A DNA stretch of 64,000 nt from sequence record OL956808.1. One strand, given 5' to 3'. Shown here in pieces: positions 701 through 32,022 of this stretch (positions are counted from its first letter, which is position 1; the number at the start of each line of letters is the position of its first letter). The translations under genes were made by a program, and so were the position numbers. Below the pieces are notes generated by a model. That model made no database searches and was not told where the DNA came from. It saw nothing but the letters and a program-made list of their open reading frames with translations. The stretch is from Escherichia phage vB_EcoM-S1P5QW.

Positions 701-1009
701 GTGAAACAAAATAAGATTGAAGTCTATGGAATTCCAGATGAAGTAGGTCGTTGTCCTGGATGTCAATCAGTTACAAAACTCCTAAAGGAGCTCAATGCTC
801 CTTTTACTTTCTATAAAGTTCTTACAAATAATGGTAAGATTGAGTATGATCGTCCACTGATTGTATCTCTTGCTAAACGCGCTGGATTCACATCTCTTAA
901 CATTCGTTATCCGGTCATTTTCATTAATGATTCTAGACAAAAGAACATTAAACACTTCAAAGAAACTCTCATTTCACTTGGATATGATAGAGATATCATA
1001 GAAGACTAA
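701..1009 (+). CDS. nrdH: Glutaredoxin-like protein (NrdH-like), GTG start
   Basis: 102 aa with CPGC redox motif; position downstream of nrdG as in T4. Confidence 0.8.
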   Translation: MKQNKIEVYGIPDEVGRCPGCQSVTKLLKELNAPFTFYKVLTNNGKIEYDRPLIVSLAKRAGFTSLNIRYPVIFINDSRQKNIKHFKETLISLGYDRDIIED

Positions 1010-1012
1010 GAC

Positions 1013-1036
1013 GGGCCCTCTGGGCCTTTCTTTCTC
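1013..1036 (+). terminator. Short GC hairpin (GGCCC-loop-GGGCC) followed by T-rich tract
   Basis: Inverted repeat directly after nrdH stop. Confidence 0.4.
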
Positions 1037-1094
1037 ACATTCTGTATATTACCATTCTAAGCTATCGTTCCCTTCTTATCATTCCCTAAAATAA

Positions 1095-1140
1095 TTTTCA
1101 CAAAGTTGTTTACAACAAGTTCAAACCGTGGTATTATTAA
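1095..1140 (+). promoter_or_regulatory. T4-type early promoter (-35 GTTTACA, 17-bp spacer, -10 TATTAT)
   Basis: TTTCACAAAGTTGTTTACA...GTGGTATTAT matches the extended T4 early promoter pattern. Confidence 0.5.
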
Positions 1141-1167
1141 CATATGAATTACCTTTGAGGAATTGAT

Positions 1168-1344
1168 ATGGTTGATAAAGAGATTAAAATTGACCAGTAC
1201 TATCGTGTTAACGGACATATCGTTATTGTTACAGCAGTCGATGATTTAGATGTTCATTATACTGTGATTAAATGGAACAAACGTATGATTTGTGATCGTG
1301 CTGTATTTAGTTCAGTTGCTAAGGAAATTAAACTCCATGGGTAA
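1168..1344 (+). CDS. Hypothetical protein (58 aa), not in ORF track
   Basis: ATG 28 nt after promoter; stop overlaps start of next ORF (ATGGGTAA). Confidence 0.45.
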   Translation: MVDKEIKIDQYYRVNGHIVIVTAVDDLDVHYTVIKWNKRMICDRAVFSSVAKEIKLHG

Positions 1345-1630
1345 AACGTATCGTCGTAAAGACTTAAAAGTGCGTGATTATGACTATTTCGGAAAGCGTA
1401 AAGCTCCTGATGGGGTAAGTCATAAAGATATGGTTGAAAACATTTTTCGCTCAGATAAATGGCGTAGAATGAAAGGTATTGATTCAGAAGTTAAAGATGA
1501 GTTAAATCGTCAATTACGTGGTGAAGTAAGAAAGTTGAAAAAATCAGTTTACATTGACGATGATTTTGATTATAATACTTCTCAACGAGTTGCTAAACGT
1601 AAATCAAACGAGTGTTATCGTTACAGCTGA
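1337..1630 (+). CDS. Hypothetical basic protein (97 aa; internal start of track ORF 1292..1630)
   Basis: Start MGKTYRRK chosen because upstream part overlaps preceding ORF; Lys/Arg-rich. Confidence 0.55.
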   Translation: MGKTYRRKDLKVRDYDYFGKRKAPDGVSHKDMVENIFRSDKWRRMKGIDSEVKDELNRQLRGEVRKLKKSVYIDDDFDYNTSQRVAKRKSNECYRYS

Positions 1631-2567: not shown

Positions 2568-2833
2568 AATTTATTAATATTTCTATTACTATTGAAAATT
2601 ATGGCATTTTCTATGTTGACCAATACATGAAAATTTCATTTTTCCCAAATAAGACTGGTGTTGGATATTGGGAAAGCCATGTTTCTGAATTAAATGAAAG
2701 TGAATATGCTAGCACACATGAAAAGTTTTTAGACTTTTTATATCATGCTGATTTAACTAGTCATTATATAGATATTCATGAATTTAAAAAGATGATGGAG
2801 AAAGTATTCCAAGCATACTGCTTACTTAGATAA
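2564..2833 (+). CDS. Hypothetical protein (89 aa)
   Basis: ORF with ATGA overlap to upstream gene. Confidence 0.6.
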   Translation: MKFINISITIENYGIFYVDQYMKISFFPNKTGVGYWESHVSELNESEYASTHEKFLDFLYHADLTSHYIDIHEFKKMMEKVFQAYCLLR

Positions 2834-2911
2834 CTGATATCCTCTATGCTTTAAGATAGATCTTCAAATATTATGATATAATAGATCTATGAATTGAGCT
2901 AAGAGGTGAAA

Positions 2912-3469
2912 ATGTCAGAAACTAAGCCTAAATATAATTACGTAAACAATAAAGAGCTTTTACAAGCTATTATTGATTGGAAAACAGAATTAGCAAATAA
3001 TAAAGACCCAAATAAAGTAGTTCGTCAGAATGATACTATCGGATTGGCCATTATGCTTATCGCAGAAGGCTTATCTAAACGTTTCAACTTTTCAGGATAC
3101 ACCCAATCCTGGAAACAAGAAATGATTGCAGATGGTATAGAAGCTTCTATTAAGGGGCTTCATAATTTTGATGAAACGAAATATAAAAACCCACATGCAT
3201 ATATAACTCAAGCTTGTTTTAATGCATTCGTCCAACGTATTAAAAAAGAACGTAAGGAAGTTGCAAAGAAATACAGTTACTTCGTTCACAATGTCTATGA
3301 CAGTCGTGACGACGATATGGTTGCGTTAGTAGATGAAACTTTTATTCAAGACATCTACGATAAAATGACGCATTACGAAGAATCAACCTATAGAACACCG
3401 GGGGCTGAAAAGAAAAGTGTTGTAGACGATTCTCCTAGTTTGGATTTTTTATATGAGGCTAACGATTAA
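2912..3469 (+). CDS. 55: Late-transcription sigma factor gp55
   Basis: [20 protein letters not shown]... matches recalled T4 gp55; 185 aa; RBS AAGAGGTG before ATG at 2912. Confidence 0.95.
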
Positions 3470-3671
3470 CCTCTCCGGATTCTTGGAAGAAATACCTGAA
3501 GTTGAAGCTATTCCCTATTTGCTTAAAATGTATCTCAGGGAAGTTTTAGCTCTTGACATTGATATTGATCCAGAAAATCCGTATGATACCGCTTTTAAAT
3601 CTAATGGTGTAGAATTAAATTACAGGTATCATTTAACAGATGATGATTTTTATTTTATATTAGAGAAATAA
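3453..3671 (+). CDS. Hypothetical protein (72 aa)
   Basis: ORF overlapping 3' end of gene 55; start uncertain. Confidence 0.5.
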
Positions 3672-3672
3672 T

Positions 3673-3990
3673 ATGACTGATAAACCCGAAATTAATGATG
3701 AAGTGGAAAAGCTTATTTCTTCTATTGAAGAAAAGAACCGTCTTGAAGCAGAAAGAAAAGCAAATAAGTTATTGTCTAAAAACAAACGTGAACTGAATCG
3801 TCTTTATAAGCACGCTCAGATCGCAGCTGAAAATAATAATTTTGCTCAATACGAATATGCTATCAAGAAAAGTCGGGATATTCTAAAACAGCCATATAAC
3901 GATGAACTCATCAGTATTCTTTGGAAGACTACTAGATCGCAAATTGAGGATATGATTGATGCTTACACACGTAAAATTCAAGCGTCTTAA
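3673..3990 (+). CDS. Hypothetical protein (105 aa), charged/helical
   Basis: ORF immediately following previous stop. Confidence 0.6.
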   Translation: MTDKPEINDEVEKLISSIEEKNRLEAERKANKLLSKNKRELNRLYKHAQIAAENNNFAQYEYAIKKSRDILKQPYNDELISILWKTTRSQIEDMIDAYTRKIQAS

Positions 3991-4162: not shown

Positions 4163-4405
4163 AAGATGAACACCCAGACTTCTGAAATAGATTATAATAA
4201 AATTCGTTCCTCTAAAGAGGAAATGATGAGACTCTTTAAAGAGTCTCATGATAAAGCTAAAGCAGAAGGAACTATAAAATATAAGCGCATAAAATTTAAA
4301 AGTTCTAACGAGCCTCTGTATGGCGTATTATGTGGATAGGAGCTTCGGCTCCTATATTGCTTTATAAATTTTTGGTAAAATAAACCAAAACAAAGAGGAT
4401 ATTAA

Positions 4406-5608
4406 ATGAAAGTATGTATTTTTATGGCTCGAGGTCTTGAAGGTTGTGGTGTAACAAAATTCTCACTCGAGCAACGTGATTGGTTTATTAAAAATAGTCA
4501 TGAAGTGACTTTGGTTTATGCTAAAGATAAATCATTTACTCGTAATTGCGCGCATGATTATAAATCATTTTCAATTCCGGTTTTATTGGCAAAAGAATAT
4601 GATAAAACACTTAAGCTGGTAAATGATTGTGATATTCTAATTATCAATTCAGTTCCTGCTACTTCGGTTGAAGAAGACACGATTAATAACTATAAAAAAA
4701 TTATTGATAACATTAAACCTTCTGTTCGTGTTGTAGTTTATCAACATGACCATTCTTCTCTTTCTTTGCGTCGAAATTTGGGATTAGAAGAAACTGTTCG
4801 TCGAGCTGATGTTATTTTTAGCCATTCTGATAATGGTGATTTTAATAAAGTTCTGATGAAAGAGTGGTATCCAGAAACTGTTTCTCTGTTTGATGATATT
4901 GAAGAAGCACCGACCGTATATAACTTTCAGCCTCCTATGGATATTGCGAAGGTTCGATCAACCTACTGGAAAGATGTTTCTGAAATTAACATGAATATCA
5001 ACCGTTGGATTGGTCGTACGACTACATGGAAAGGTTTTTATCAGATGTTTGATTTTCACGAAAAACATCTTAAACCTGCAGGACTAAGTACTATTATGGA
5101 AGGTCTGGAACGTTCTCCAGCGTTCATTCCTATTAAAGAAAAAGGAATTCCATACGAGTATTATCGTCTTCATCAAGTAGACCAAATTAAAATTGCTCCT
5201 AATTTGCCAACGCAAATTCTTGACCGTTATGTAAATAGCGAAATGCTTGAACGTATGAGTAAATCCGGATTTGGTTATCAGTTGAGTAAGTTGGATAAAA
5301 AATATCTACAGCGCTCTTTAGAATATACTCATCTCGAGCTTGGTGCATGTGGAACAATTCCGGTATTTTGGAAATCTACTGGCGAAAATTTAAAATTCCG
5401 TGTTGATAATACTCCTTTGACCTCGCATGATAGCGGTATCATTTGGTTTGATGAAAATGATATGGAATCAACATTTGAACGTATTAAAGAACTGTCATCT
5501 GACCGAGCTCTTTATGACCGTGAGCGAGAAAAAGCATATGAATTTTTGTATCAGCATCAAGATTCAAGCTTCTGCTTTAAAGAACAGTTTGACATTATTA
5601 CAAAATAA
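4406..5608 (+). CDS. agt: DNA alpha-glucosyltransferase
   Basis: 400 aa; MKVCIFMARGLEGCGVTKFSLEQRDWFIKN... matches recalled T4 alpha-gt nearly throughout. Confidence 0.95.
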   Translation: MKVCIFMARGLEGCGVTKFSLEQRDWFIKNSHEVTLVYAKDKSFTRNCAHDYKSFSIPVLLAKEYDKTLKLVNDCDILIINSVPATSVEEDTINNYKKIIDNIKPSVRVVVYQHDHSSLSLRRNLGLEETVRRADVIFSHSDNGDFNKVLMKEWYPETVSLFDDIEEAPTVYNFQPPMDIAKVRSTYWKDVSEINMNINRWIGRTTTWKGFYQMFDFHEKHLKPAGLSTIMEGLERSPAFIPIKEKGIPYEYYRLHQVDQIKIAPNLPTQILDRYVNSEMLERMSKSGFGYQLSKLDKKYLQRSLEYTHLELGACGTIPVFWKSTGENLKFRVDNTPLTSHDSGIIWFDENDMESTFERIKELSSDRALYDREREKAYEFLYQHQDSSFCFKEQFDIITK

Positions 5609-7251: not shown

Positions 7252-8930
7252 AGAATTTTAAACTAAACCGAGTTAGGTATCAAAATATAATGTCAGTAGG
7301 TGGAAATCCTATTGACATTCAATTAGATAAGGTTCAAAAAACTCTTATTACTGGCCGAAATGGCGGTGGTAAGTCTACTATGTTAGAAGCCATCACATTT
7401 GGGCTTTTTGGCAAGCCATTTCGTGATGTAAAGAAAGGTCAATTAATAAACAGCACAAATAAGAAAGAACTTTTAGTTGAACTGTGGATGGAATATGATG
7501 AGAAAAAGTACTATATCAAAAGAGGACAAAAACCGAACGTTTTCGAAATCACCGTTAACGGTACACGTCTTAATGAATCTGCCAGCAGTAAAGATTTCCA
7601 AGCAGAATTTGAACAGCTTATCGGAATGTCATATGCCAGTTTCAAGCAGATTGTTGTTCTTGGTACAGCAGGGTATACCCCTTTCATGGGTTTGTCGACC
7701 CCTGCGCGAAGAAAGCTTGTGGAAGACCTGCTTGAGGTAGGAACATTAGCTGAAATGGATAAGCTTAATAAAGCACTAATACGTGAATTAAATTCACAAA
7801 ACCAAGTGCTTGATGTTAAAAAAGATAGTATTATCCAACAAATTAAAATATATAATGATAACGTTGAACGCCAGAAAAAATTAACGGGTGACAACCTTAC
7901 TCGTCTTCAAAATATGTATGATGATTTGGCAAAAGAAGCTAGAACGCTAAAATCGGAAATAGAAGAAGCTAACGAAAGATTAGTTAATATTGTTTTGGAT
8001 GAAGACCCGACTGATGCATTTAATAAAATCGGTCAAGAAGCATTTTTAATTAAATCAAAAATTGATTCGTATAATAAAGTCATTAATATGTATCACGAAG
8101 GTGGATTATGTCCAACCTGTTTGTCACAATTAAGTTCCGGTGATAAAGTTGTTTCTAAAATTAAAGATAAAGTTTCTGAATGCACGCATTCATTTGAACA
8201 GCTTTCAACACATCGTGATAATTTAAAAGTTCTTGTTGATGAATACCGAGATAATATTAAAACCCAGCAGACGTTGGCAAATGATATTCGCAATAAAAAG
8301 CAATCTCTAATCACGACGGTAGATAAAGCTAAAAAAGTTAAAGCAGCTATAGAAAAAGCATCATCCGAGTTTATTGACCATGCTGATGAAATAGCACTGC
8401 TTCAAGAAGAACTTGATAAAATTGTTAAGACAAAAACTAATTTAGTAATGGAAAAATACCACAGAGGAATTTTGACTGACATGCTCAAAGATTCTGGTAT
8501 TAAAGGTGCTATTATTAAAAAGTACATTCCATTATTTAATAAGCAGATTAACCATTATCTTAAAATAATGGAAGCGGATTATGTGTTTACATTAGATGAA
8601 GAATTTAATGAGACAATTAAATCCCGTGGTCGTGAAGATTTTAGTTATGCTTCATTTAGTCAAGGTGAAAAAGCACGAATTGATATTGCTCTTTTATTTA
8701 CTTGGCGTGATATTGCTGAAAAAGTTTCAGGTGTTAAAATAAACACACTAATTCTTGATGAAGTTTTTGATTCAGCGACCGACGTTGAAGGTGTAAAAGC
8801 TATTTCAACTATTTTAGATAGTTTAAAAAATACTAATGTTTTTGTTATTTCACATAGAGACCATGACCCGCAAGCATACGGTCAGCATCTTCAAATGAAG
8901 AAAGTTGGTCGATTTACTGTAATGGTTTAA
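7248..8930 (+). CDS. 46: Recombination endonuclease subunit gp46 (Rad50/SbcC-like ATPase), GTG start
   Basis: 560 aa; Walker A GRNGGGKST, coiled coil with CPTC zinc hook, C-terminal signature/Walker B region. Confidence 0.95.
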   Translation: MKNFKLNRVRYQNIMSVGGNPIDIQLDKVQKTLITGRNGGGKSTMLEAITFGLFGKPFRDVKKGQLINSTNKKELLVELWMEYDEKKYYIKRGQKPNVFEITVNGTRLNESASSKDFQAEFEQLIGMSYASFKQIVVLGTAGYTPFMGLSTPARRKLVEDLLEVGTLAEMDKLNKALIRELNSQNQVLDVKKDSIIQQIKIYNDNVERQKKLTGDNLTRLQNMYDDLAKEARTLKSEIEEANERLVNIVLDEDPTDAFNKIGQEAFLIKSKIDSYNKVINMYHEGGLCPTCLSQLSSGDKVVSKIKDKVSECTHSFEQLSTHRDNLKVLVDEYRDNIKTQQTLANDIRNKKQSLITTVDKAKKVKAAIEKASSEFIDHADEIALLQEELDKIVKTKTNLVMEKYHRGILTDMLKDSGIKGAIIKKYIPLFNKQINHYLKIMEADYVFTLDEEFNETIKSRGREDFSYASFSQGEKARIDIALLFTWRDIAEKVSGVKINTLILDEVFDSATDVEGVKAISTILDSLKNTNVFVISHRDHDPQAYGQHLQMKKVGRFTVMV

Positions 8931-8985
8931 TTTATAAGAGATTATGCTTTAATTTATTAGAGTATAATCTCTATGGAGGAAAAAC

Positions 8986-9174
8986 ATGGAATATTCAACT
9001 GGACAGCATCTATTAACTATTCCTGAAATAAAACGATATATTCTGAGAAATAATTTTTCTAATGAAGAGCATATAGTTACTGAATATATGCTTAGGAATG
9101 CATTTAAAGCAGAATATACAAAAATAATGTCCAATAGAAATGAAGCTTGGACTGTTACTGATTATTATGACTAA
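8986..9174 (+). CDS. Hypothetical protein (62 aa), position of T4 45.2
   Basis: Small ORF between 46 and rpbA. Confidence 0.6.
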   Translation: MEYSTGQHLLTIPEIKRYILRNNFSNEEHIVTEYMLRNAFKAEYTKIMSNRNEAWTVTDYYD

Positions 9175-9183
9175 AGGTGTATT

Positions 9184-9573
9184 ATGACTAAAATTACTGT
9201 GAATTATACTGTTGATGTAAAAGATATTCAGCCAAAACACGTGCGTTCTGAATCAAATCCACAAAACCAAAATAAAATCCGTCGAGCATGGGTTTTGTCT
9301 CTTTCTGATAACGCAATGGAAGTTATTCAGAACAAAATTAAATCTGCACCTGCTCGTCATGCGTATTATGAAGCTATCGATCGTGAAGTAAGTAATAAAT
9401 GGATTGAACTAATGCGCAAACATACTACAGAATCTCTAAACGCCGGTGCTAAATTTATTATGACTTCATGTGGTGAACGCCTTGAAGATGATTATTGCGG
9501 TAATGCAGATGAACGTCTGATTGTTGCTGCACAAATTGTTGCGGAAACAATTGTGGCCGAGTTTAATAAATGA
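9184..9573 (+). CDS. rpbA: RNA polymerase binding protein RpbA
   Basis: 129 aa; position between 46 and 45 as in T4. Confidence 0.8.
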
Positions 9574-10457
9574 ATTTAGTATATCTTATTAGCTTTCCAG
9601 AGCGGGAAGCTAAAAATATTTTTCCGTGTTATTATATAGGTTCAAAAATTAACGCAATTTTCGATGGAACAAATATAATTGATTCAGCTGGAAAGATTTA
9701 TACTGGAAGCGTGTCATCGAGTTATAGCGATGAATATTTTGAACTTATTAAAACCACTAAATATACCGTCAAAATTTTAGCTGAAACTATATTAGATCCA
9801 AGAAAATTGGAGAGATTTTTTCAATTAAAAGTTAAAGCAAAGAGTAATATAAAATATTTTAATAAAGCATACGCAGATGAAAATACTTTAATTGGTGCTA
9901 AAGGATATGGAACATATAAAAATGTTTTAACTGGAAAAATTGTAAAGCTTTCGCAATCTGAAATTACGCCTGAGTATGTCGGTATTCGTAAAGGTTACAA
10001 ACATAGTTCTGAAGTAAAATACAAAATATCTAATTCAATGAAGAATCACTGGACCGATGAGAAAAAGCTTAAACTCTCAAATAAGATGAAATTGAAATAT
10101 CTTGATTGTAGTTATGCTAAAAAGTTTAGTGATATAATGAATTCAGAAAGTGTAAGATCAAAAATTTCTAAATCTCAAAAAGAATTATGGAATAATGCTG
10201 AAAGAAGACAGAGAGCTTCAATTCAAGCAACTGTTAGAAATAATTTACCGGAATTCAAATCAAAATTTAGAAAATCTAAAGCTAGAGGAACTTGGATTGA
10301 ACATGAAGATGAATTAAAATCTTTATGGCATGCTTACGGAAAACCAAGTTATAATAAATTTCGTAAAATTGCAGTAGCTAATGGGTTTAACGACGAATCT
10401 TATCAGGGTGCTGTACGGTCCTGGTCTAACTATTATGTAAATAGGAAATTGAAATGA
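9570..10457 (+). CDS. Free-standing GIY-YIG homing endonuclease (Seg-like)
   Basis: N-terminal VYLISF...YYIGS GIY-YIG motifs; C-terminal repeated NUMOD3-like units ([33 protein letters not shown]); ATGA overlaps with rpbA and 45. Confidence 0.8.
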
Positions 10458-11140
10458 AATTATCTAAAGACACACTGAATATTTTGAAAAATTTCGCTAC
10501 TATTAACTCTGGCATTATGCTTAAATCAGGTCAATTTATTATGACTCGCGCAGTTAATGGTACAACTTATGCAGAAGCAAATATTTCTGACACTATTGAT
10601 TTTGATGTAGCGATTTACGATTTGAACGGTTTTCTCGGTATTCTGTCTCTAGTTAATGATGATGCAGAAATTTCCCAGTCAGAAGATGGAAATATTAAAA
10701 TTGCTGATGCCCGCTCAACAATTTTTTGGCCAGCAGCCGATCCGAGTACAGTAGTTGCTCCTAATAAACCAATTCCATTCCCGGTAGCATCTGTTGTTAC
10801 TGAAATTAAAGCTGAAGACCTTCAACAACTGTTGCGTGTATCTCGTGGTCTGCAAATTGATACAATTGCTATCACGGTAAAAGAAGGTAAAATCGTAATT
10901 AATGGTTTTAATAAAGTAGAAGATTCTGCTCTTACCCGTGTTAAATATTCTTTGACTCTTGGTGATTATGATGGTGAAAATACATTTAATTTCATTATCA
11001 ATATGGCAAATATGAAAATGCAACCAGGAAATTATAAACTTCTGCTCTGGGCAAAAGGTAAACAAGGCGCTGCTAAATTTGAAGGTGAACACGCGAATTA
11101 TGTAGTAGCTCTTGAAGCTGATTCTACCCACGATTTTTAA
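10454..11140 (+). CDS. 45: Sliding clamp gp45
   Basis: 228 aa; [24 protein letters not shown]... matches recalled T4 gp45. Confidence 0.95.
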   Translation: MKLSKDTLNILKNFATINSGIMLKSGQFIMTRAVNGTTYAEANISDTIDFDVAIYDLNGFLGILSLVNDDAEISQSEDGNIKIADARSTIFWPAADPSTVVAPNKPIPFPVASVVTEIKAEDLQQLLRVSRGLQIDTIAITVKEGKIVINGFNKVEDSALTRVKYSLTLGDYDGENTFNFIINMANMKMQPGNYKLLLWAKGKQGAAKFEGEHANYVVALEADSTHDF

Positions 11141-11144
11141 TAGA

Positions 11145-11160
11145 GGGCTTCGGCCCTTTA
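11145..11160 (+). terminator. GGGC-UUCG-GCCC hairpin after gene 45
   Basis: Tetraloop hairpin 5 nt after stop. Confidence 0.45.
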
Positions 11161-11191
11161 TAATTTACACTAAAACTTGAATGAGGAAATT

Positions 11192-12151
11192 ATGATTACC
11201 GTAAATGAAAAAGAACACATTCTTGAACAGAAATATCGTCCATCTACTATCGATGAATGTATTCTTCCCGCCTTTGATAAAGAAACCTTTAAATCTATTA
11301 CAAGTAAAGGTAAGATTCCACATATTATTCTTCATTCTCCTTCTCCAGGAACAGGTAAAACAACTGTAGCAAAAGCATTGTGTCATGATGTAAATGCTGA
11401 TATGATGTTTGTGAATGGATCAGACTGTAAAATTGATTTCGTTCGTGGTCCTTTGACTAATTTTGCCAGCGCCGCTTCATTTGATGGTCGTCAAAAAGTA
11501 ATAGTTATTGATGAATTTGACCGCTCAGGATTAGCAGAGTCTCAGCGACATCTTCGTTCCTTTATGGAAGCTTATAGTTCAAACTGTAGTATTATTATTA
11601 CTGCTAACAATATTGATGGTATTATTAAACCGCTTCAGTCACGCTGCCGAGTTATTACGTTCGGTCAACCGACCGATGAAGATAAAATTGAAATGATGAA
11701 GCAGATGATTCGTCGATTGACTGAAATCTGCAAGCATGAAGGAATTGCTATAGCTGATATGAAAGTTGTAGCAGCTTTGGTTAAAAAGAATTTTCCTGAT
11801 TTTCGTAAAACTATTGGCGAGCTCGATAGTTATTCATCTAAAGGTGTTTTGGATGCTGGTATTTTATCACTGGTTACTAACGATCGTGGTGCTATTGATG
11901 ATGTTCTTGAGTCTCTCAAAAATAAAGATGTTAAACAACTCAGAGCTTTAGCACCAAAATATGCGGCTGATTATTCGTGGTTCGTTGGTAAACTTGCCGA
12001 AGAAATCTATACACGCGTAACTCCACAAAGTATTATTCGTATGTATGAAATTGTTGGTGAAAATAACCAGTATCACGGAATTGCGGCTAATACGGAATTA
12101 CATTTAGCATATCTTTTCATTCAATTGGCATGCGAAATGCAGTGGAAGTGA
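11192..12151 (+). CDS. 44: Clamp loader large subunit gp44 (AAA+ ATPase)
   Basis: 319 aa from ATG at 11192 ([17 protein letters not shown]...); Walker A GTGKTT; RBS GAGGAAA. Confidence 0.95.
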
Positions 12152-12152
12152 T

Positions 12153-12716
12153 ATGAGCTTATTTGAAGATGATATTCAATTAAACGAGCATCAAGTTGCT
12201 TGGTATTCAAAAGATTGGACAGCTGTCCAATCCGCTGCTGATTCTTTTAAAGAAAAAGCTGAAAATGAATTTTTTGAAATAATTGGAGCTATTAATAATA
12301 AAACTAAATGCTCTATTGCTCAAAAAGATTATTCAAAATTCATGGTCGAAAATGCATTATCACAATTTCCAGAGTGCATGCCAGCTGTATATGCTATGAA
12401 TTTAATTGGATCAGGTTTAAGTGATGAAGCCCATTTTAATTATCTGATGGCTGCAGTTCCTCGTGGTAAAAGATATGGTAAATGGGCAAAACTGGTCGAA
12501 GATTCCACCGAAGTATTGATTATTAAGTTACTTGCTAAGCGGTATCAAGTTAATACAAATGATGCAATTAACTATAAATCAATTCTTACTAAAAATGGAA
12601 AACTACCTTTAGTATTAAAAGAACTTAAAGGATTAGTCACGGATGATTTTTTAAAAGAAGTGACTAAGAACGTAAAAGAACAGAAACAACTCAAAAAACT
12701 AGCATTGGAATGGTAA
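12153..12716 (+). CDS. 62: Clamp loader small subunit gp62
   Basis: 187 aa; directly downstream of 44. Confidence 0.93.
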
Positions 12717-13086: not shown

Positions 13087-13096
13087 GGTAAATTAT

Positions 13097-13333
13097 ATGA
13101 CACAATCAGAGATTCAGTTTACCGAAGCTTTTCTAATATTCGAAAATCTAAAACAAACATATGGTCTGTCTTCTACTCAACTGGTTTTTGACCTCCCGGA
13201 AGATAAACAAATAGAATTCCAAAAAGAATTCCAACGATTAGTTTACCCACGCCAACGCGCATTTCATGCGATTATCAAAACCACAAATAAAGATGGCAAG
13301 TCCGTTATATCGCGTCGTACAATAGAAATTTAA
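13097..13333 (+). CDS. Hypothetical protein (78 aa; internal start of track ORF 13046..13333)
   Basis: ORF between regA and 43, followed by UUCG hairpin at 13340..13358. Confidence 0.45.
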   Translation: MTQSEIQFTEAFLIFENLKQTYGLSSTQLVFDLPEDKQIEFQKEFQRLVYPRQRAFHAIIKTTNKDGKSVISRRTIEI

Positions 13334-13413: not shown

Positions 13414-16110
13414 ATGAAAGAATTTTATATCTCTATCGAAACAGTCGGAAATAATATTGTTGAACGTTATATTGATGAAAACGGAAAGGAACGTACTCGT
13501 GAAGTAGAATATCTTCCGACTATGTTTAGGCATTGTAAGGAAGAGTCAAAATACAAAGACATCTATGGTAAAAACTGCGCTCCTCAAAAATTTCCATCAA
13601 TGAAAGATGCTCGAGATTGGATGAAGCGAATGGAAGACATCGGTCTCGAAGCTCTCGGTATGAACGATTTTAAACTCGCTTATATCAGTGATACGTATGG
13701 TTCAGAAATTGTTTATGACCGAAAATTTGTTCGTGTAGCTAACTGTGACATTGAGGTTACTGGTGATAAATTTCCTGACCCAATGAAAGCTGAATATGAA
13801 ATTGATGCTATCACTCATTACGATTCAATTGATGATCGTTTTTATGTTTTCGACCTTTTGAATTCAATGTACGGTTCAGTATCAAAATGGGATGCAAAGT
13901 TAGCTGCTAAGCTTGACTGTGAAGGTGGTGATGAAGTTCCTCAAGAAATTCTTGACCGAGTAATTTATATGCCATTCGATAATGAGCGTGATATGCTCAT
14001 GGAATATATCAATCTCTGGGAACAGAAACGACCTGCTATTTTTACTGGTTGGAATATTGAGGGATTTGACGTTCCGTATATCATGAATCGCGTTAAAATG
14101 GTTCTCGGTGAACGTAGTATGAAACGCTTCTCTCCAATCGGTCGAGTAAAATCTAAACTAATTCAAAATATGTACGGCAGCAAAGAAATTTATTCTATTG
14201 ATGGCGTATCTATTCTTGATTATTTAGATTTGTATAAGAAATTCGCATTTACTAATTTGCCGTCATTCTCTTTGGAATCAGTTGCTCAGCATGAAACCAA
14301 AAAGGGTAAATTACCATACGACGGTCCTATTAATAAACTTCGTGAGACTAATCATCAACGATACATTAGTTATAACATCATTGACGTAGAATCAGTTCAA
14401 GCAATTGATAAAATTCGCGGGTTTATCGATCTAGTTTTAAGTATGTCTTATTACGCTAAAATGCCTTTTTCCGGTGTAATGAGTCCTATTAAAACTTGGG
14501 ATGCTATTATTTTTAACTCATTGAAAAGTGAACATAAGGTTATTCCTCAACAAGGTTCGCACGTTAAACAAAGTTTTCCGGGTGCATTTGTATTTGAACC
14601 TAAACCGATTGCTCGTCGATACATTATGAGTTTTGACTTGACGTCTCTGTATCCTAGCATTATTCGTCAGGTTAACATTAGTCCTGAGACTATTCGTGGG
14701 CAGTTTAAAGTTCATCCAATTCATGAATATATCGCAGGAACAGCTCCTAAACCGAGTGATGAATATTCTTGTTCTCCGAATGGATGGATGTACGATAAGC
14801 ATCAAGAAGGTATCATTCCAAAGGAAATCGCTAAAGTATTTTTCCAGCGTAAAGATTGGAAAAAGAAAATGTTCGCTGAAGAAATGAATGCCGAAGCTAT
14901 TAAAAAGATTATTATGAAAGGCGCAGGGTCTTGTTCAACTAAACCTGAAGTTGAACGATATGTTAAGTTCAGTGATGATTTCTTAAATGAACTATCGAAT
15001 TATACTGAATCTGTTCTCAATAGTTTGATTGAAGAATGTGAAAAAGCAGCTACACTTGCTAATACAAATCAGCTGAACCGTAAAATTCTTATTAACAGCC
15101 TTTACGGTGCTCTTGGTAATATTCATTTCCGTTACTATGATTTGCGAAATGCTACTGCTATCACAATTTTTGGTCAAGTTGGTATTCAGTGGATTGCTCG
15201 TAAAATTAATGAGTATCTGAATAAAGTATGTGGAACTAATGGCGAAGATTTCATCGCAGCAGGTGATACTGATTCGGTATATGTTTGTGTAGATAAAGTT
15301 ATTGAAAAAGTAGGTCTTGACCGATTCAAAGAGCAGAACGATTTGGTTGAATTTATGAATCAGTTCGGTAAGAAAAAGATGGAACCTATGATTGATGTTG
15401 CATATCGTGAGTTATGTGATTATATGAATAACCGCGAGCATCTGATGCATATGGACCGTGAAGCTATTTCTTGCCCTCCGCTTGGTTCAAAGGGTGTTGG
15501 TGGATTTTGGAAAGCGAAAAAGCGTTATGCTCTGAACGTTTATGATATGGAAGATAAGCGTTTTGCTGAACCACATCTAAAAATCATGGGTATGGAAACT
15601 CAGCAGAGTTCAACGCCTAAAGCGGTCCAAGAAGCTCTCGAAGAAAGTATTCGTCGTATTCTTCAGGAAGGTGAAGAGTCTGTCCAAGAATATTACAAGA
15701 ACTTCGAGAAAGAATATCGTCAACTTGACTATAAAGTTATTGCTGAAGTAAAAACTGCGAACGATATAGCGAAATATGATGATAAAGGTTGGCCAGGATT
15801 TAAATGCCCGTTCCATATTCGTGGGGTGCTAACTTATCGTCGAGCTGTTAATGGTCTGGGTGTAGCTCCAATTTTGGATGGAAATAAAGTAATGGTTCTT
15901 CCATTACGTGAAGGAAATCCATTTGGTGACAAGTGTATTGCTTGGCCGTCGGGCACAGAACTTCCAAAAGAAATTCGTTCTGACGTACTGTCTTGGATTG
16001 ACTACTCAACTTTGTTCCAAAAATCGTTTGTTAAACCGCTTGCAGGCATGTGTGAATCGGCTGGTATGGACTATGAAGAAAAAGCTTCGTTAGACTTCCT
16101 GTTTGGCTGA
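13414..16110 (+). CDS. 43: DNA polymerase gp43 (family B)
   Basis: 898 aa; exo motifs and polymerase motifs (DTDS, YGDTDS-like); matches recalled T4 gp43. Confidence 0.97.
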   Translation: MKEFYISIETVGNNIVERYIDENGKERTREVEYLPTMFRHCKEESKYKDIYGKNCAPQKFPSMKDARDWMKRMEDIGLEALGMNDFKLAYISDTYGSEIVYDRKFVRVANCDIEVTGDKFPDPMKAEYEIDAITHYDSIDDRFYVFDLLNSMYGSVSKWDAKLAAKLDCEGGDEVPQEILDRVIYMPFDNERDMLMEYINLWEQKRPAIFTGWNIEGFDVPYIMNRVKMVLGERSMKRFSPIGRVKSKLIQNMYGSKEIYSIDGVSILDYLDLYKKFAFTNLPSFSLESVAQHETKKGKLPYDGPINKLRETNHQRYISYNIIDVESVQAIDKIRGFIDLVLSMSYYAKMPFSGVMSPIKTWDAIIFNSLKSEHKVIPQQGSHVKQSFPGAFVFEPKPIARRYIMSFDLTSLYPSIIRQVNISPETIRGQFKVHPIHEYIAGTAPKPSDEYSCSPNGWMYDKHQEGIIPKEIAKVFFQRKDWKKKMFAEEMNAEAIKKIIMKGAGSCSTKPEVERYVKFSDDFLNELSNYTESVLNSLIEECEKAATLANTNQLNRKILINSLYGALGNIHFRYYDLRNATAITIFGQVGIQWIARKINEYLNKVCGTNGEDFIAAGDTDSVYVCVDKVIEKVGLDRFKEQNDLVEFMNQFGKKKMEPMIDVAYRELCDYMNNREHLMHMDREAISCPPLGSKGVGGFWKAKKRYALNVYDMEDKRFAEPHLKIMGMETQQSSTPKAVQEALEESIRRILQEGEESVQEYYKNFEKEYRQLDYKVIAEVKTANDIAKYDDKGWPGFKCPFHIRGVLTYRRAVNGLGVAPILDGNKVMVLPLREGNPFGDKCIAWPSGTELPKEIRSDVLSWIDYSTLFQKSFVKPLAGMCESAGMDYEEKASLDFLFG

Positions 16111-16123
16111 TAGAATAAATCTA

Positions 16124-16145
16124 GGGACCTCCGGGTCCCTTTTTC
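16124..16145 (+). terminator. GGGACC-UCCG-GGUCCC hairpin plus T5
   Basis: Strong hairpin 14 nt after gene 43 stop. Confidence 0.6.
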
Positions 16146-16209
16146 ATACAAGTAATATAAATCTATACTTATGAAAAACAGATGATTCTGGACCTTTAGA
16201 ATTCCCTAA

Positions 16210-16262
16210 AAAAATTTCACAAAACTGTTTACAAGACTGTTCTTCCATGGTACTATACAACT
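16210..16262 (+). promoter_or_regulatory. T4-type early promoter (-35 GTTTACA, -10 TACTAT)
   Basis: TTTCACAAAACTGTTTACAAGACTGTTCTTCCATGGTACTATACAA; near-identical module recurs at 43940..44002. Confidence 0.55.
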
Positions 16263-16284
16263 ATCAACTACGGAGGAACACAAA

Positions 16285-16536
16285 ATGAAAAATATTCAAA
16301 CTAATTTTATTCAAAATTTAAAAGTTGTTAACGCAGAAAAAGCTAATAAACTCTTTAAAGTTAAAGAATTTGAAAATGAAGGTAACACTTACGGTATTAT
16401 AGAACAAAATGGAATGGTTACTGGATTAGAAATTTATAATGGTAAAGGAAAATTTCAGTCACAGCCAATTTCTGTTATGGGTGTAAGAAAAGGAATTAAA
16501 ACTGAAGATGCTTTAAAGTTATTTGTTAAGTTTTAA
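16285..16536 (+). CDS. Hypothetical protein (83 aa)
   Basis: ORF with RBS GGAGGAAC downstream of early promoter. Confidence 0.6.
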   Translation: MKNIQTNFIQNLKVVNAEKANKLFKVKEFENEGNTYGIIEQNGMVTGLEIYNGKGKFQSQPISVMGVRKGIKTEDALKLFVKF

Positions 16537-16548
16537 GAGGAAATTATT

Positions 16549-16929
16549 ATGAAAATCGCTATTTTGGTTATTGCATTAGGTCTTACTGGTTGTGTGGCTC
16601 AAGGACCGGTAGTAAATCAGTCTGATGTAGGAAAAATTGTAAACTGTTCAAGCAAGTTTTATAATCCTAATGTCAAGTGTTATAAAGAAGCTCCAAAGCA
16701 AACAGTAGAACAAATGCAGGCGAATTTTGACGAAGCTATTCGTCCAGATGAATCTGCTCAAGCATATCGTAATTCGGATGTAATTACACGCGAAGAAAAA
16801 ATTGAAAACTACTGCGCCGAGCTTTGGGCTAATTGGGCTAATAATTACCAATGGCGTACCGGTAAAAATGCTCCGATGGAGTATGTAGTGAATTCTTATA
16901 ATTCATGCGTAAAAAATTTGACTAAGTGA
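16549..16929 (+). CDS. Predicted lipoprotein (126 aa)
   Basis: Signal peptide MKIAILVIALGLTGC with lipobox LTG-C; four further Cys; adjacent to imm. Confidence 0.6.
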   Translation: MKIAILVIALGLTGCVAQGPVVNQSDVGKIVNCSSKFYNPNVKCYKEAPKQTVEQMQANFDEAIRPDESAQAYRNSDVITREEKIENYCAELWANWANNYQWRTGKNAPMEYVVNSYNSCVKNLTK

Positions 16930-16936
16930 GGAAAAC

Positions 16937-17188
16937 ATGGAAACTTTAGTAGCAGGTTCAATTTTTATGGTTTTAGTTTCAGGCGTGTTGGCTATTATTA
17001 TATACATGCTTCCATGGTTTATCGCCTTGATGCGTGGGTCAAAATCGACAGTAGGAATCTTTTTCACGTCTTTACTGTTTAACTGGTCAATTATTGGTTG
17101 GTTTATTACATTTATTTGGTCAATTGCGGGTGAAACTAAAAAGTCTGCACAGCCAAATCAGGTAATTATCATCAGAGAGAAGGAATGA
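16937..17188 (+). CDS. imm: Superinfection immunity membrane protein Imm (probable)
   Basis: 83 aa, two TM segments, position between 43 and 42 as in T4. Confidence 0.65.
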   Translation: METLVAGSIFMVLVSGVLAIIIYMLPWFIALMRGSKSTVGIFFTSLLFNWSIIGWFITFIWSIAGETKKSAQPNQVIIIREKE

Positions 17189-17334
17189 AAAGCAAAATTA
17201 TAGCAGTGTTGCTTTTAATCTTGATGATTATAATAAGTATATACTATAGTGTAACGGTTCCTCTTATGATTCCAACTATTATTTTAGGTTGGAGCTTATT
17301 ACTGTTACAAGTTAAATATGAATGTATCAATTGA
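17185..17334 (+). CDS. Small membrane protein (49 aa), not in ORF track
   Basis: ATGA overlap with imm; hydrophobic sequence MKSKIIAVLLLILMIIISIYY... Confidence 0.45.
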   Translation: MKSKIIAVLLLILMIIISIYYSVTVPLMIPTIILGWSLLLLQVKYECIN

Positions 17335-17341
17335 GGTTTAA

Positions 17342-18082
17342 ATGATTAGTGACTCTATGACAGTTGAAGAAATCCGTCTTCATTTGGGGCTTGCATTAAA
17401 GGAAAAAGATTTCGTAGTTGATAAAACTGGTGTTAAAACTGTTGAAATTATTGGCGCATCATTTGTAGCAGATGAACCCTTTATTTTTGGCGCTCTTAAT
17501 GATGAATACATTCAGCGTGAACTTGAATGGTACAAGTCTCAAAGTCTGTTTGTTAAAGATATTCCAGGTGAAACACCAAAGATTTGGCAGCAGGTAGCAT
17601 CTTCTAAAGGCGAAATTAACTCGAATTATGGTTGGGCTATTTGGTCAGAAGATAACTATGCCCAGTATGATATGTGTTTAGCTGAACTTGGTCAAAATCC
17701 TGATTCTCGACGTGGTATCATGATTTATACTCGTCCATCTATGCAGTTTGACTATAATAAAGATGGTATGTCAGATTTCATGTGCACGAATACAGTACAG
17801 TACCTGATTCGTGACAAGAAAGTCAATGCAGTAGTAAGCATGCGCTCAAATGACGTGGTCTTCGGATTCCGTAATGATTATGCATGGCAAAAATACGTAT
17901 TAGATAAATTAGTATCTGATTTGAATGCAGGCGATTCAACTCGTCAGTATAAAGCAGGTTCTATTATATGGAATGTTGGAAGTCTTCATGTATATTCTCG
18001 TCATTTTTACTTGGTTGATCATTGGTGGAATACTGGCGAAACTCATATTGTGAAAAAAGACTATAAAGGTGAGTGGAAATGA
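17342..18082 (+). CDS. 42: dCMP hydroxymethylase gp42
   Basis: 246 aa; matches recalled T4 gp42 throughout. Confidence 0.95.
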   Translation: MISDSMTVEEIRLHLGLALKEKDFVVDKTGVKTVEIIGASFVADEPFIFGALNDEYIQRELEWYKSQSLFVKDIPGETPKIWQQVASSKGEINSNYGWAIWSEDNYAQYDMCLAELGQNPDSRRGIMIYTRPSMQFDYNKDGMSDFMCTNTVQYLIRDKKVNAVVSMRSNDVVFGFRNDYAWQKYVLDKLVSDLNAGDSTRQYKAGSIIWNVGSLHVYSRHFYLVDHWWNTGETHIVKKDYKGEWK

Positions 18083-18921
18083 TTCAATTCGTAATTCCAA
18101 GTTATCAACGTGTCGGGGCAGTTTCTGCCCTTGATATGTTTCCGACTGATTATGAACCGCATATTGTAGTGCGTGAACACGAAGAAAAAGCTTATTATGA
18201 TGCTTATGGGTCTAGAGCTAAAATTATAACTATTCCTGATGATGTAAACGGAATTGCCGGTACTCGTAAAGCAATTACTGATATGTATGCAGGTCAACGA
18301 ATTTGGATGATTGACGATGATACTACTATTCGTATGAGTTCAATGCGAAAAAGAGATGACCGTCGTTGTGTGGATAAAGTCAATCAATTGACTCATGAAC
18401 AGTTCTATGAATTGATTCAATATGTTGAGGATGCCATGGATTGTGGGTATTATCATGGCCATGCTCGTCTACCTATTTTTAAAATTACTTCATCTTGGGG
18501 CAATTATCGTGAAAATTCATATGGATTCACGAATACATGGTATGACCTCGGAAAACTTACTACAGAACAAATTGGGTATGGAAAAATTGATTTATGCGAA
18601 GATATGTATGCATTTCTCAATTTAATTAGTCAAGGTTATCCGCATTTGGCCTTGTTCAAATATCTGGTTGTATCTGGAAAAGCACAAGCTCCTGGCGGGT
18701 GTAGTTCAATTCGTAGTAATTCTAAACATAATAGAGCGCTTGAGCAAATCAATAGAGAGTTTCCAGAGCAAGCTCGTTGGAAAACTTCTAATATTGAAAA
18801 ACGAAAATCGTTGGGTGAAGAAGACGAGCCATTAAAGGTTCTTCGCATGTGTGTTTCACGTAAAGAAAAATCAGAAGCATTTCATAAGTTTAATGCTATT
18901 CATCCAATAGCAGTTGATTAA
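18073..18921 (+). CDS. Glycosyltransferase with DxD motif occupying the T4 beta-gt locus; candidate beta-1,6-glucosyl-alpha-glucose transferase (T2/T6 type)
   Basis: 282 aa, WMIDDDTT DxD motif; lies between 42 and uvsX where T4 carries the unrelated 351-aa beta-gt. Confidence 0.55.
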   Translation: MEMIQFVIPSYQRVGAVSALDMFPTDYEPHIVVREHEEKAYYDAYGSRAKIITIPDDVNGIAGTRKAITDMYAGQRIWMIDDDTTIRMSSMRKRDDRRCVDKVNQLTHEQFYELIQYVEDAMDCGYYHGHARLPIFKITSSWGNYRENSYGFTNTWYDLGKLTTEQIGYGKIDLCEDMYAFLNLISQGYPHLALFKYLVVSGKAQAPGGCSSIRSNSKHNRALEQINREFPEQARWKTSNIEKRKSLGEEDEPLKVLRMCVSRKEKSEAFHKFNAIHPIAVD

Positions 18922-18945
18922 TGCCTAAATTTATTGTGTTATAAT
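18922..18945 (+). promoter_or_regulatory. Possible MotA-dependent middle promoter upstream of uvsX (MotA-like box TGCCTAA, -10 TATAAT)
   Basis: TGCNT-type box about 11 bp upstream of TATAAT. Confidence 0.35.
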
Positions 18946-18998
18946 TACTCTATCTTTAACCAGTGAGGAAAATATAATGATGCCTATGGAAAAAATGA

Positions 18999-20180
18999 AT
19001 GTCTATTGCAGATTTAAAATCCCGTTTGATTAAAGCTTCCACTTCTAAAATGACTGCTGAACTGACTACATCTAAATTCTTTAATGAAAAGGATGTAATC
19101 CGTACAAAAATCCCAATGCTTAATATTGCTATTTCTGGTGCGATTGATGGCGGCATGCAGTCTGGTTTAACTATTTTCGCAGGGCCTTCTAAACACTTTA
19201 AATCAAATATGTCTTTGACTATGGTTGCGGCATATTTGAACAAATATCCTGACGCGGTTTGTCTATTCTATGATAGCGAATTTGGTATTACTCCAGCTTA
19301 TTTACGATCCATGGGAGTTGACCCGGAACGAGTAATTCATACGCCAATTCAGTCAGTTGAACAGCTGAAAATTGATATGGTGAACCAGCTTGAAGCTATT
19401 GAGCGTGGTGAAAAGGTTATTGTATTCATCGACTCAATCGGTAATATGGCTTCTAAGAAAGAAACGGAAGATGCCTTGAATGAAAAATCTGTGGCAGATA
19501 TGACTCGTGCTAAATCACTGAAGTCATTATTCCGTATTGTTACTCCTTATTTTAGCATTAAAAATATTCCATGTGTTGCGGTTAACCATACAATTGAAAC
19601 AATTGAAATGTTTAGTAAAACCGTGATGACAGGTGGTACAGGCGTAATGTATTCGGCTGATACTGTATTCATTATCGGTAAACGCCAGATTAAAGATGGT
19701 TCTGATCTTCAGGGGTATCAATTTGTTCTAAATGTAGAAAAATCTCGTACCGTTAAAGAAAAAAGTAAATTCTTTATTGATGTTAAATTTGACGGTGGTA
19801 TCGATCCTTATTCTGGATTGTTAGATATGGCTCTAGAATTAGGATTTGTTGTAAAACCTAAGAATGGTTGGTATGCTCGTGAATTTCTTGACGAAGAAAC
19901 TGGCGAGATGATTCGCGAAGAAAAATCTTGGCGTGCAAAAGATACCAACTGCACTACATTCTGGGGTCCTTTATTTAAGCATCAACCATTCCGAGATGCT
20001 ATTAAACGTGCTTATCAGTTAGGTGCTATTGATAGTAATGAAATTGTTGAAGCTGAAGTTGATGAATTGATTAACTCAAAGGTTGAAAAATTTAAATCTC
20101 CAGAAAGTAAAAGTAAATCAGCAGCTGATTTAGAAACTGACCTCGAGCAGTTAAGTGATATGGAAGAATTTAATGAATAA
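18999..20180 (+). CDS. uvsX: RecA-like recombinase UvsX
   Basis: 393 aa; MSIADLKSRLIKAS...; Walker A GPSKHFKS; matches recalled T4 UvsX. Confidence 0.95.
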   Translation: MSIADLKSRLIKASTSKMTAELTTSKFFNEKDVIRTKIPMLNIAISGAIDGGMQSGLTIFAGPSKHFKSNMSLTMVAAYLNKYPDAVCLFYDSEFGITPAYLRSMGVDPERVIHTPIQSVEQLKIDMVNQLEAIERGEKVIVFIDSIGNMASKKETEDALNEKSVADMTRAKSLKSLFRIVTPYFSIKNIPCVAVNHTIETIEMFSKTVMTGGTGVMYSADTVFIIGKRQIKDGSDLQGYQFVLNVEKSRTVKEKSKFFIDVKFDGGIDPYSGLLDMALELGFVVKPKNGWYAREFLDEETGEMIREEKSWRAKDTNCTTFWGPLFKHQPFRDAIKRAYQLGAIDSNEIVEAEVDELINSKVEKFKSPESKSKSAADLETDLEQLSDMEEFNE

Positions 20181-23432: not shown

Positions 23433-23597
23433 ATGAAAACATATAAAGAATTTATTAAAGAAGATATGGTCGCTGGAGATTCAGGCGGTAATCCTGAAAA
23501 TATCTCTACTGGAACAACGTCAGGCGCTGTAGTAAATAAAGGCCCTGAACAGATTCCTAAAAAGAAAAAAGAGGAATCTAAAGAAAAAGAAGAGTAA
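23433..23597 (+). CDS. Hypothetical small Lys/Glu-rich protein (54 aa), not in ORF track
   Basis: ATG 2 nt after previous stop; stop 2 nt before gene 61. Confidence 0.5.
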   Translation: MKTYKEFIKEDMVAGDSGGNPENISTGTTSGAVVNKGPEQIPKKKKEESKEKEE

Positions 23598-23599
23598 AA

Positions 23600-24628: not shown

Positions 24629-24825
24629 ATCAACCCAACTAAAGCAAATGCTAAATCTACAAATGTATCAAGAGTAACTACTGGAATATTAATACCATGT
24701 GCAATTGCAATTGGTGATAAAATAAAGTTCCAGAGTAAAATTCCTACCATAGCAGAAATAGTAAAAGCTATACGTTTTTTATTACCTTTTATGGCATTAA
24801 CAAGTGCCATTAATTTTTGTACCAT
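24625..24825 (-). CDS. Hypothetical small membrane protein (66 aa) antisense to the early unit
   Basis: Two predicted TM segments; strong SD AAGGAGGA 4 nt before ATG; tail-to-tail stop overlap with gene 61. Confidence 0.45.
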   Translation of the reverse strand: MVQKLMALVNAIKGNKKRIAFTISAMVGILLWNFILSPIAIAHGINIPVVTLDTFVDLAFALVGLI

Positions 24826-24837
24826 ATGTCCTCCTTA

Positions 24838-24862
24838 TTGCTTTATATATTTATTGTATAAT
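24838..24862 (+). promoter_or_regulatory. Candidate MotA-dependent middle promoter for gene 56 (MotA box TTGCTTTA, 11-bp spacer, -10 TATAAT)
   Basis: TGCTT box at about -30 relative to TATAAT. Confidence 0.45.
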
Positions 24863-24896
24863 TAATCTACTAACCCATGAATTGAAAGGAAAAATA

Positions 24897-32016: not shown

Positions 32017-32022
32017 GGCTAT

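Follow-up and report, generated by a model that had tools for sequence, protein, structure and literature searches.

A SegG-like gene between rpbA and gene 45 of a T-even phage: a probable free-standing homing endonuclease with a predicted target at the empty junction

Escherichia phage vB_EcoM-S1P5QW (sequence record OL956808.1), of which a stretch of 64,000 nucleotides (hereafter, the window) was analysed, carries between the replication-cluster genes rpbA and 45 a gene for a 295-residue protein that we interpret as a free-standing homing endonuclease of the Seg type. According to this interpretation, to which we assign a probability of about 0.6, a SegG-like GIY-YIG nuclease domain is joined through a beta linker to a C-terminal part that is helical, binds DNA and includes one or two minor-groove motifs of the NUMOD3 kind, and the enzyme would cut the allele lacking its gene, with the empty rpbA/45 junction as the target. 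The homing endonuclease gene (HEG) is an uncharacterised new SegG-like member of a well-known class, and databases already give it a generic homing-endonuclease label, several GenBank records annotating it as '(putative) homing endonuclease'. Literature searches for an account of an endonuclease gene in the rpbA/45 slot found none.

The rpbA/45 slot and its occupants

HEG occupies positions 9570-10457 on the plus strand and is tightly wedged between its neighbours. Its ATG (9570-9572) overlaps the stop of rpbA, which ends ...AAT AAA TGA at 9573, and its own end, TTG AAA TGA with the TGA at 10455-10457, overlaps the gene 45 ATG at 10454-10456, the shared sequence being ATGA in both cases. An earlier note, made from the letters of the window alone, had described these overlaps and had taken both neighbours for conserved replication genes. 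We find the overlaps as described, and Pfam matches support the identity of rpbA (RNA polymerase-binding protein; 9184-9573, plus strand; Phage_RpbA, 6e-42) and of gene 45 (sliding clamp; 10454-11140, plus strand; N- and C-terminal gp45 domains, 8e-32 and 1e-51).

The note had also taken the slot to be empty in T4 and had suggested a comparison of the junctions. In T4 (NC_000866) only a 55-bp spacer devoid of genes lies between the rpbA stop at 32659 and the gene 45 start at 32603, and blastn of the window against T4 places 875 bp (9568-10442) where T4 has 51 bp (32614-32664); a spacer thus lies where HEG sits. About 95% of relatives likewise have an empty slot. Rather than being shared by T4 and most of its relatives, HEG is present in 24 of the 633 related records retrieved from the phage collection by megablast with positions 8900-11200 as the Tequatrovirus query. 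The other records cover about 62% of the query, which corresponds to the flanks without the HEG open reading frame (ORF), and tblastn finds the HEG protein at 95% identity or more in the 24 full-coverage records. Among the carriers are the BASEL phage Bas45 (PaulHMueller) and SHBML-50-1.

Outside Tequatrovirus, full-length orthologues of 55-60% identity that adjoin the clamp gene are recovered by tblastn from Mosigvirus (AV118, AV116) and from Gaprivervirus (TH15), the carriers amounting to 10 of about 154 Mosigvirus records and to 3 of about 34 Gaprivervirus records (TH15 plus VR26, which is listed twice). A fourth T-even lineage, represented by metagenome assemblies only, has an orthologue of 58% identity (P0004), again between rpbA and 45 and with overlapping stop and start. 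HEG is therefore slot-specific and rare, at roughly 5-9% in the three named genera. Orthologue identities between the lineages (51-63%) are lower than the gp45, gp44 and gp46 values, which they fail to track cleanly, so that vertical persistence and old transfer between genera cannot be separated here.

Judging from its full-length homologues in four lineages and from the ratio of nonsynonymous to synonymous substitution rates (dN/dS), HEG is a real gene and not a chance ORF. In the eight intact Tequatrovirus copies dN/dS is 0.07, the values for gene 45 and rpbA of these genomes being 0.04 and 0.08, respectively; the protein is therefore maintained. Eight of the nine sampled copies are intact. 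The ninth, in Shigella phage ESh24 (2171-3059), is 889 nt long and is split into two annotated ORFs by a one-base insertion, which may reflect a decaying copy or a sequencing error, the record being marked UNVERIFIED.

Two further observations concern other genes. Salmonella phage F13076 has a second, different annotated homing endonuclease gene between 46 and 45.2 (727-1443, minus strand), and thus two endonuclease genes no more than 1.5 kb apart in the replication cluster. A 322-residue relative (P0005) found in four IMG/VR environmental viral contigs (L007-L010, 4001-4435) shares 40% identity with HEG across its N-terminal ~145 residues and differs from it at the C-terminus, where a NUMOD3 match is found.

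Nuclease domain and DNA-binding region

The 295-residue ORF had been proposed in the note to encode an enzyme of the Seg/I-TevI type with GIY-YIG motifs, a proposal that fares well. The two motifs are found at residues 4-9 (VYLISF) and 21-25 (YYIGS). The best PHROG is phrog_655 ('homing endonuclease', 4e-33), followed by phrog_7504, which is that of SegG (5e-18), while phrog_314, the best PHROG of I-TevI, SegA and SegF, is linked weakly (3e-4). Residues 1-102 are 40% identical to T4 SegG, the shared features including MN-VY...P-YYIGSK, a Tyr and a Ser after the YIG strand, an ER/ERK helix and YFN.

The conservation of the nuclease domain was assessed in a wider family of 265 representatives collected by exhaustive HMMER search, of which 143 were aligned; 126 relatives were scanned with Pfam. 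Y5, Y22, G24, Y44, S47 and N98 are invariant in all 143, and V4, P19, I23 (137/143), S25, K26, E81 (142/143) and F97 are nearly so. In the structure model, the N-terminal domain (residues 1-105; 9570-9884, plus strand) has the alpha/beta GIY-YIG fold, if a divergent one, and bears its Tyr, Tyr-x-Gly, Glu and Asn motif residues. The superfamily's GIY Tyr (Y5) and its YIG Tyr-x-Gly (Y22-I23-G24) lie on model strands 2-8 and 21-26, and E81 lies within helix 78-87, E81 and N98 being matched to I-TevI E75 and N90 by fold position only. An insertion of about 25 residues after the YIG strand carries the invariant Y44 and S47. Also named in our account of the nuclease domain are a 5-hydroxymethylcytosine-specific GIY-YIG restriction enzyme, the UvrC N-terminal domain, T4 EndoII and R.Eco29kI.

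Beyond the nuclease domain, the model shows a small beta module of three strands (residues 113-118, 124-128 and 136-138; 9906-9983, plus strand; predicted local distance difference test score, pLDDT, 74-94), which has no Pfam match and which we regard as the linker, and then about ten helices. Of the three NUMOD3-like repeats claimed in the note, one marginal motif and one internal copy hold up. Within motif 1 (residues 140-162; 9987-10055, plus strand), residues 140-158 match Pfam NUMOD3 with an E value of 0.11 when the whole protein is searched, and of 0.002 when scanned alone (18.5 bits, cut-off 20.4). The second and weaker copy, residues 190-211 (10137-10202, plus strand), scores 42 in local alignment to motif 1, where shuffled sequences average 21.9 (p 0.0025), and has no Pfam match when scanned alone. 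The proposed third copy finds no support (shuffle p 0.35-0.73). These figures come from Pfam scans of isolated segments and from a shuffle test, which replaced a repeat hidden Markov model cut around motif 1 that proved uninformative, as MAFFT aligns the variable C-terminal region poorly. At the level of the family the NUMOD3 link suggested by sequence comparison is firm: 87 of the 126 scanned relatives match NUMOD3, and the family profile matches the I-TevI DNA-binding domain (1i3j) at 6.6e-5 via the I-TevI NHKHSDITKSKISEKMKGK stretch. The all-helical region of residues 227-295 (10248-10454, plus strand) is the presumed DNA-binding end; the extreme C-terminal helices returned generic matches only.

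The similarity to SegG does not amount to orthology. SegG has 210 residues against 295 in HEG, its gene lies in the 59/32 slot rather than at rpbA/45, and the C-terminal two-thirds of the two proteins are unrelated; SegG activity is proven, whereas the nuclease activity of HEG is predicted. The possibility that HEG is the segG orthologue was rejected, as the two proteins are similar no further than residue 102 and fall in different PHROGs, and as a genuine segG (62317-62946, plus strand, 210 aa, 99.5% identical to T4T SegG) is found in the window. The phage carries both genes, so that HEG is a paralogue-level relative of segG.

With I-TevI, the enzyme of the td intron of T4 (catalytic domain, PDB 1ln0), HEG shares the order of N-terminal nuclease, linker and extended C-terminal region, which in HEG is presumed to bind DNA and bears a marginal NUMOD3-type motif. 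The two differ in that I-TevI is intron-encoded and HEG free-standing, and in that HEG has no zinc finger, though many of its relatives end in CxxC...RWHxxNC. Their catalytic domains show no sequence-level match, and HEG has the insertion after the YIG strand and no clear equivalent of Arg27.

The junction, its predicted target and gene 45 expression

What could be the target of such an enzyme? We compared the junctions of nine HEG-carrying Tequatrovirus sequences, the window included, with those of eight, later ten, HEG-less ones. At the left junction the sole fixed difference is the end of rpbA, which reads AAA TGA in the carriers, with AAA as the last sense codon (9568-9570), and CGT TAA in the HEG-less sequences; other differences nearby are polymorphic among the carriers. 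At the right junction gene 45 begins ATG AAA TTA TCT AAA GAC in the carriers and ATG AAA CTG TCT AAA GAT in the sampled HEG-less sequences, three synonymous sites in codons 3 and 6 (10460, 10462 and 10471) tracking the presence of HEG. A column-by-column scan of 7400-9566 and 10454-12700 in nine carriers and ten HEG-less sequences revealed no other HEG-associated site.

Recoding of the gene 45 start, within codons 3-9, is seen in all four lineages and is heavier in the other three than in Tequatrovirus. In Mosigvirus the carriers have CTT AGC CGT GAA ACC GTA AAT where HEG-less phages have CTG TCT AAA GAT ACT ATC GCT, and homology between the two groups restarts 26 nt into gene 45; in Gaprivervirus TTT AGT CGT GAC ACC stands against TTC TCT AAA GAC ACT; the carriers of the fourth lineage have TTT AGT CGT GAA ACT. 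HEG-less phages of several genera, in turn, display a strongly conserved TTGAAAGGAAA...ATGAAAYTNTCTAAAGA at the junction. We predict from these comparisons that HEG would recognise the empty rpbA/45 junction, that is, the gene 45 translation-initiation region together with the first ~26 nt of the gene, TTGAAGGAAATTACATGAAACTGTCTAAAGATAC in T4-type phages. Because no alternative protected site is seen within 2 kb, the junction is favoured as the working model. The translation-initiation region of gene 45 is also the binding region of the translational repressor RegA.

The association between HEG and the recoded start is not absolute. A 30-nt probe of the carriers' gene 45 allele retrieves 27 collection records at one mismatch or fewer, including all 24 HEG-carrying records and three without a full-length HEG: RPN226 and LH2, both confirmed as empty, and ERS-1, a candidate. 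In RPN226 (2440-2530) and LH2 (2441-2530) an empty slot and a normal spacer coexist with the HEG-linked gene 45 start ATGAAATTATCTAAAGACACG, and exclusivity of this allele to HEG carriers was accordingly rejected. The two alleles could be ancestral insertion hosts, recombinants or natural cleavage-resistant empty alleles.

The enzyme made in a mixed infection would cut the HEG-less allele, and double-strand-break repair templated on the HEG-carrying genome would copy HEG with short flanks into the recipient, the outcome being intronless homing with local marker exclusion. If the junction is the target, genomes carrying HEG would be protected from their own enzyme by the insertion and by the recoding of gene 45. 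HEG has replaced the spacer bearing the gene 45 middle promoter and ribosome-binding site, its own 3' end carrying candidate replacements for both. The pattern of polymorphism is compatible with homing. Inside HEG, nucleotide diversity among the carriers is 0.002-0.023 and lowest in the 3' part, but it rises to 0.037-0.042 at 9400-9600 and to 0.039 at 10500; peaks located right at the borders are compatible with recombination end-points clustering near a break site. HEG moreover occurs on diverse flanking backgrounds.

The displaced expression signals deserve closer consideration. The empty spacer, removed by the insertion, holds a MotA-box middle-promoter motif, TGCTTTA-N12-TAAAAT, and Pm45 is among the known middle promoters of T4 (PMC6024815). 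Within the HEG coding sequence, about 100 nt upstream of gene 45, lies a MotA-type motif on the plus strand, TGCTTAC-N12-TATAAT (10331-10355), and the Mosigvirus and Gaprivervirus orthologues have TGCTTTA-N12-TATATT at the same position, though the 12 intervening bases differ. We regard this embedded motif as a candidate replacement for the displaced Pm45. The MotA-type pattern is enriched in the window, with 39 observed occurrences, mostly on the plus strand, against 14.9 expected. The Shine-Dalgarno sequence of gene 45 (AGGAAA, 10443-10448, plus strand) is now supplied by the last codons of HEG, and AATAGGAAA plus 5 nt before the gene 45 ATG is conserved in all four HEG-carrying lineages.

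A parallel arrangement is found at segG. Two MotA-type motifs (62489 and 62769) inside the segG of the window match the published embedded promoters of gene 32, which sit inside segG in an arrangement considered to help the phage keep its endonuclease gene (PMC2988022). HEG and segG are both promoter-less cassettes in the replication-gene cluster, oriented as their neighbours and followed directly by an essential replication gene with a promoter inside the endonuclease gene, published for segG (PMC2988022) and suggested by the motif for HEG.

As regards the expression of HEG itself, inspection by eye reveals no Shine-Dalgarno sequence ahead of the ATG; this, together with the overlap of its start with the rpbA stop, suggests low expression translationally coupled to rpbA. 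A terminator-like hairpin detected by consensus scan at 9589-9613 (plus strand) begins 20 nt into HEG and consists of a 10-bp stem and a 5-nt loop followed by T-rich AAATATTTTT, with a folding energy of -15.9 kcal/mol (z -1.3). Tested for conservation, it is absent from the Mosigvirus orthologue; in that of Gaprivervirus another hairpin (z -2.8) lies close by. The hairpin of HEG may be a chance structure or one that attenuates read-through out of rpbA.

Weighing the explanations, and what the gene implies

Several observations weigh against the interpretation of HEG as an active, junction-cutting GIY-YIG enzyme. Some of them concern the nuclease domain. The catalytic Arg of I-TevI, R27, has no clear equivalent in HEG, and there is no invariant Arg among the 143 aligned relatives, the best-conserved basic residues being K26 (137/143, 96%), R12 (114/143, 80%) and K42 (104/143); SegG has the same layout in this region. 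The search for Pfam PF01541, which the earlier note had suggested as a check, returned no match at E<=1 for HEG or its orthologues, NCBIfam returned none, and when the family profile is compared with I-TevI by hhalign, the NUMOD3 region aligns but the catalytic domain does not, so that the catalytic residues are not mappable by sequence. PF01541 likewise matches none of the 126 scanned relatives, SegE_GIY-YIG matches 7 of them weakly (best 3e-4), and phmmer against the PDB yields no GIY-YIG match for HEG. The missing Pfam match carries little weight, because T4 SegG, a proven enzyme, also goes without a Pfam GIY-YIG match at E<=1. Nor does it exclude membership in the superfamily, given the fold of the N-terminal domain; it reflects the divergence of the SegG-like subgroup.

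Other points concern the target and the mode of spread. The Tequatrovirus alleles differ by three synonymous changes only. The recoded codons could represent hitch-hiking donor sequence, AGY CGT being common to three lineages, and the data also fit a reading in which the first ~20-26 nt of gene 45 merely travel with the cassette. A junction-proximal target is atypical, as those T4 Seg enzymes that have been characterised have cut sites hundreds to thousands of bp from the insertion site (PMC2988022). A signature of a recent selective sweep was also sought among the HEG-carrying genomes and not found, diversity being 0.013 in HEG and 0.018-0.029 in the flanks.

These points lead to the best-placed of the alternatives, which we nevertheless hold to be unlikely: HEG may encode an active Seg-type enzyme that, like SegF and SegG, cuts a distant site, hundreds of bp off in 45, 44, rpbA or 46, with the recoded start of gene 45 as hitch-hiking donor sequence. 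The habit of free-standing T4 endonucleases of cutting far from their insertion site speaks for it, and the AGY CGT recoding common to three HEG-carrying lineages fits common descent with the cassette. However, no other HEG-associated site exists within ~2.2 kb on each side in the nine carriers and ten HEG-less sequences, so that a distant target would have to be identical in both groups and would offer no sequence-based self-protection. SegA-F and the wider seg-like free-standing GIY-YIG genes of T4-related phages can be compared with HEG here. Like HEG, which has a GC content of 29.1% against 35-37% in the flanking genes, they are patchy in close relatives, sit between conserved genes in the same orientation and are low in GC, and they are expected to act by intronless homing, with exclusion of markers (PMC2988022; PMC2993671). 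HEG differs in recurring at one slot in four lineages and in that the linked flank changes abut the insertion point, hinting at a junction-proximal target, whereas the sites of the T4 Seg enzymes are distant.

The junction-cutting interpretation can also be pushed further than we are ready to follow with any confidence. As a tentative extension, HEG could be a Seg-type enzyme that recognises its own empty insertion junction in the manner of an intron-encoded one and persists in the same slot of at least four T-even lineages as a 5-9% polymorphism under purifying selection, having carried the recoded gene 45 start and a replacement middle promoter between genera; if so, HEG could also alter the regulation of gene 45.

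Somewhat harder to accept is the possibility that HEG has been domesticated, serving the phage as a DNA-binding regulator or as an exclusion nuclease directed at competitors, or being kept for the promoter and ribosome-binding site that it provides to gene 45, such that homing is not the reason for its persistence. Purifying selection on HEG is as strong as on the neighbouring essential genes, the embedded promoter motif and Shine-Dalgarno sequence of an essential gene would make its deletion costly, its diversity similar to that of the flanks gives no hint of a recent sweep, and autorepression is a known second role of I-TevI (PMC2988022). Yet a beneficial gene should not stay at 5-9% in each of three genera, and promoter carriage alone would conserve neither the nuclease motif residues nor a low dN/dS along the whole ORF. 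Finally, an inactive relic decaying after its spread had stopped, to which a catalytic Arg without recognisable equivalent, the missing Pfam match and the frameshift in ESh24 might point, is very improbable, since all but one of the sampled copies are intact, dN/dS is low, none of the 143 relatives departs from the motif residues, active SegG shows the same features, and the single-base insertion in the UNVERIFIED ESh24 record may be a sequencing error.

The gene order around HEG, 46, 45.2, rpbA, HEG, 45, 44, 62 and regA, is that of T4 with HEG added, the small ORF 45.2 (8986-9174) matching Pfam Gp45_2 at 7e-35. Elsewhere, the gaps in the blastn comparison reveal a number of differences between the window and T4, several of which involve T4-specific mobile genes: mobB is absent (window 4391-4417, T4 37815-38678); segA is absent and the beta-gt region is replaced by 946 bp of other sequence (window 18065-19010, T4 23556-25496); segF is absent, with two small ORFs of 66 and 69 aa instead (window 25379-25799, T4 15611-16306); and the topoisomerase gene lacks the mobA / gene 60 / 60.1 insertion by which it is split in T4 (window 38772-38835, T4 2794-3910). 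The dam DNA adenine methyltransferase gene also appears to be absent, 40 bp of the window (24837-24876) corresponding to 919 bp of T4 (16806-17724), and gene 56 beside this gap is only 75% identical to its T4 counterpart. A 245-bp insertion between regA and gene 43 (13088-13332) contains a small ORF of 95 aa (first ATG 13046, end 13333), whose equivalent in a metagenomic relative (L042), a gene of 88 aa, has a weak Pfam Phage_RB18_ORF43 match. Further short insertions relative to T4 lie at 2579-2838, 16275-16548 and 32017-32247.

Recombination and marker exclusion in T-even phages are shaped by free-standing homing endonucleases, few of which have to our knowledge been characterised outside the T4 set (SegA-G, Mob). 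HEG belongs to a SegG-like GIY-YIG subgroup that is invisible to Pfam and NCBIfam and calls for structure-based annotation. We consider the case mildly interesting for the fidelity to one slot in four lineages, the recoding close to the junction, the HEG-type gene 45 start in empty alleles and the embedded promoter. The comparative data give a concrete target prediction, namely the empty rpbA/45 junction with the first ~26 nt of gene 45, for which RPN226 and LH2 are natural candidate resistant empty alleles. HEG adjoins the sliding-clamp gene in phages that are used in collections and in therapy, and it would bias the inheritance of the replication-gene cluster in co-infections.

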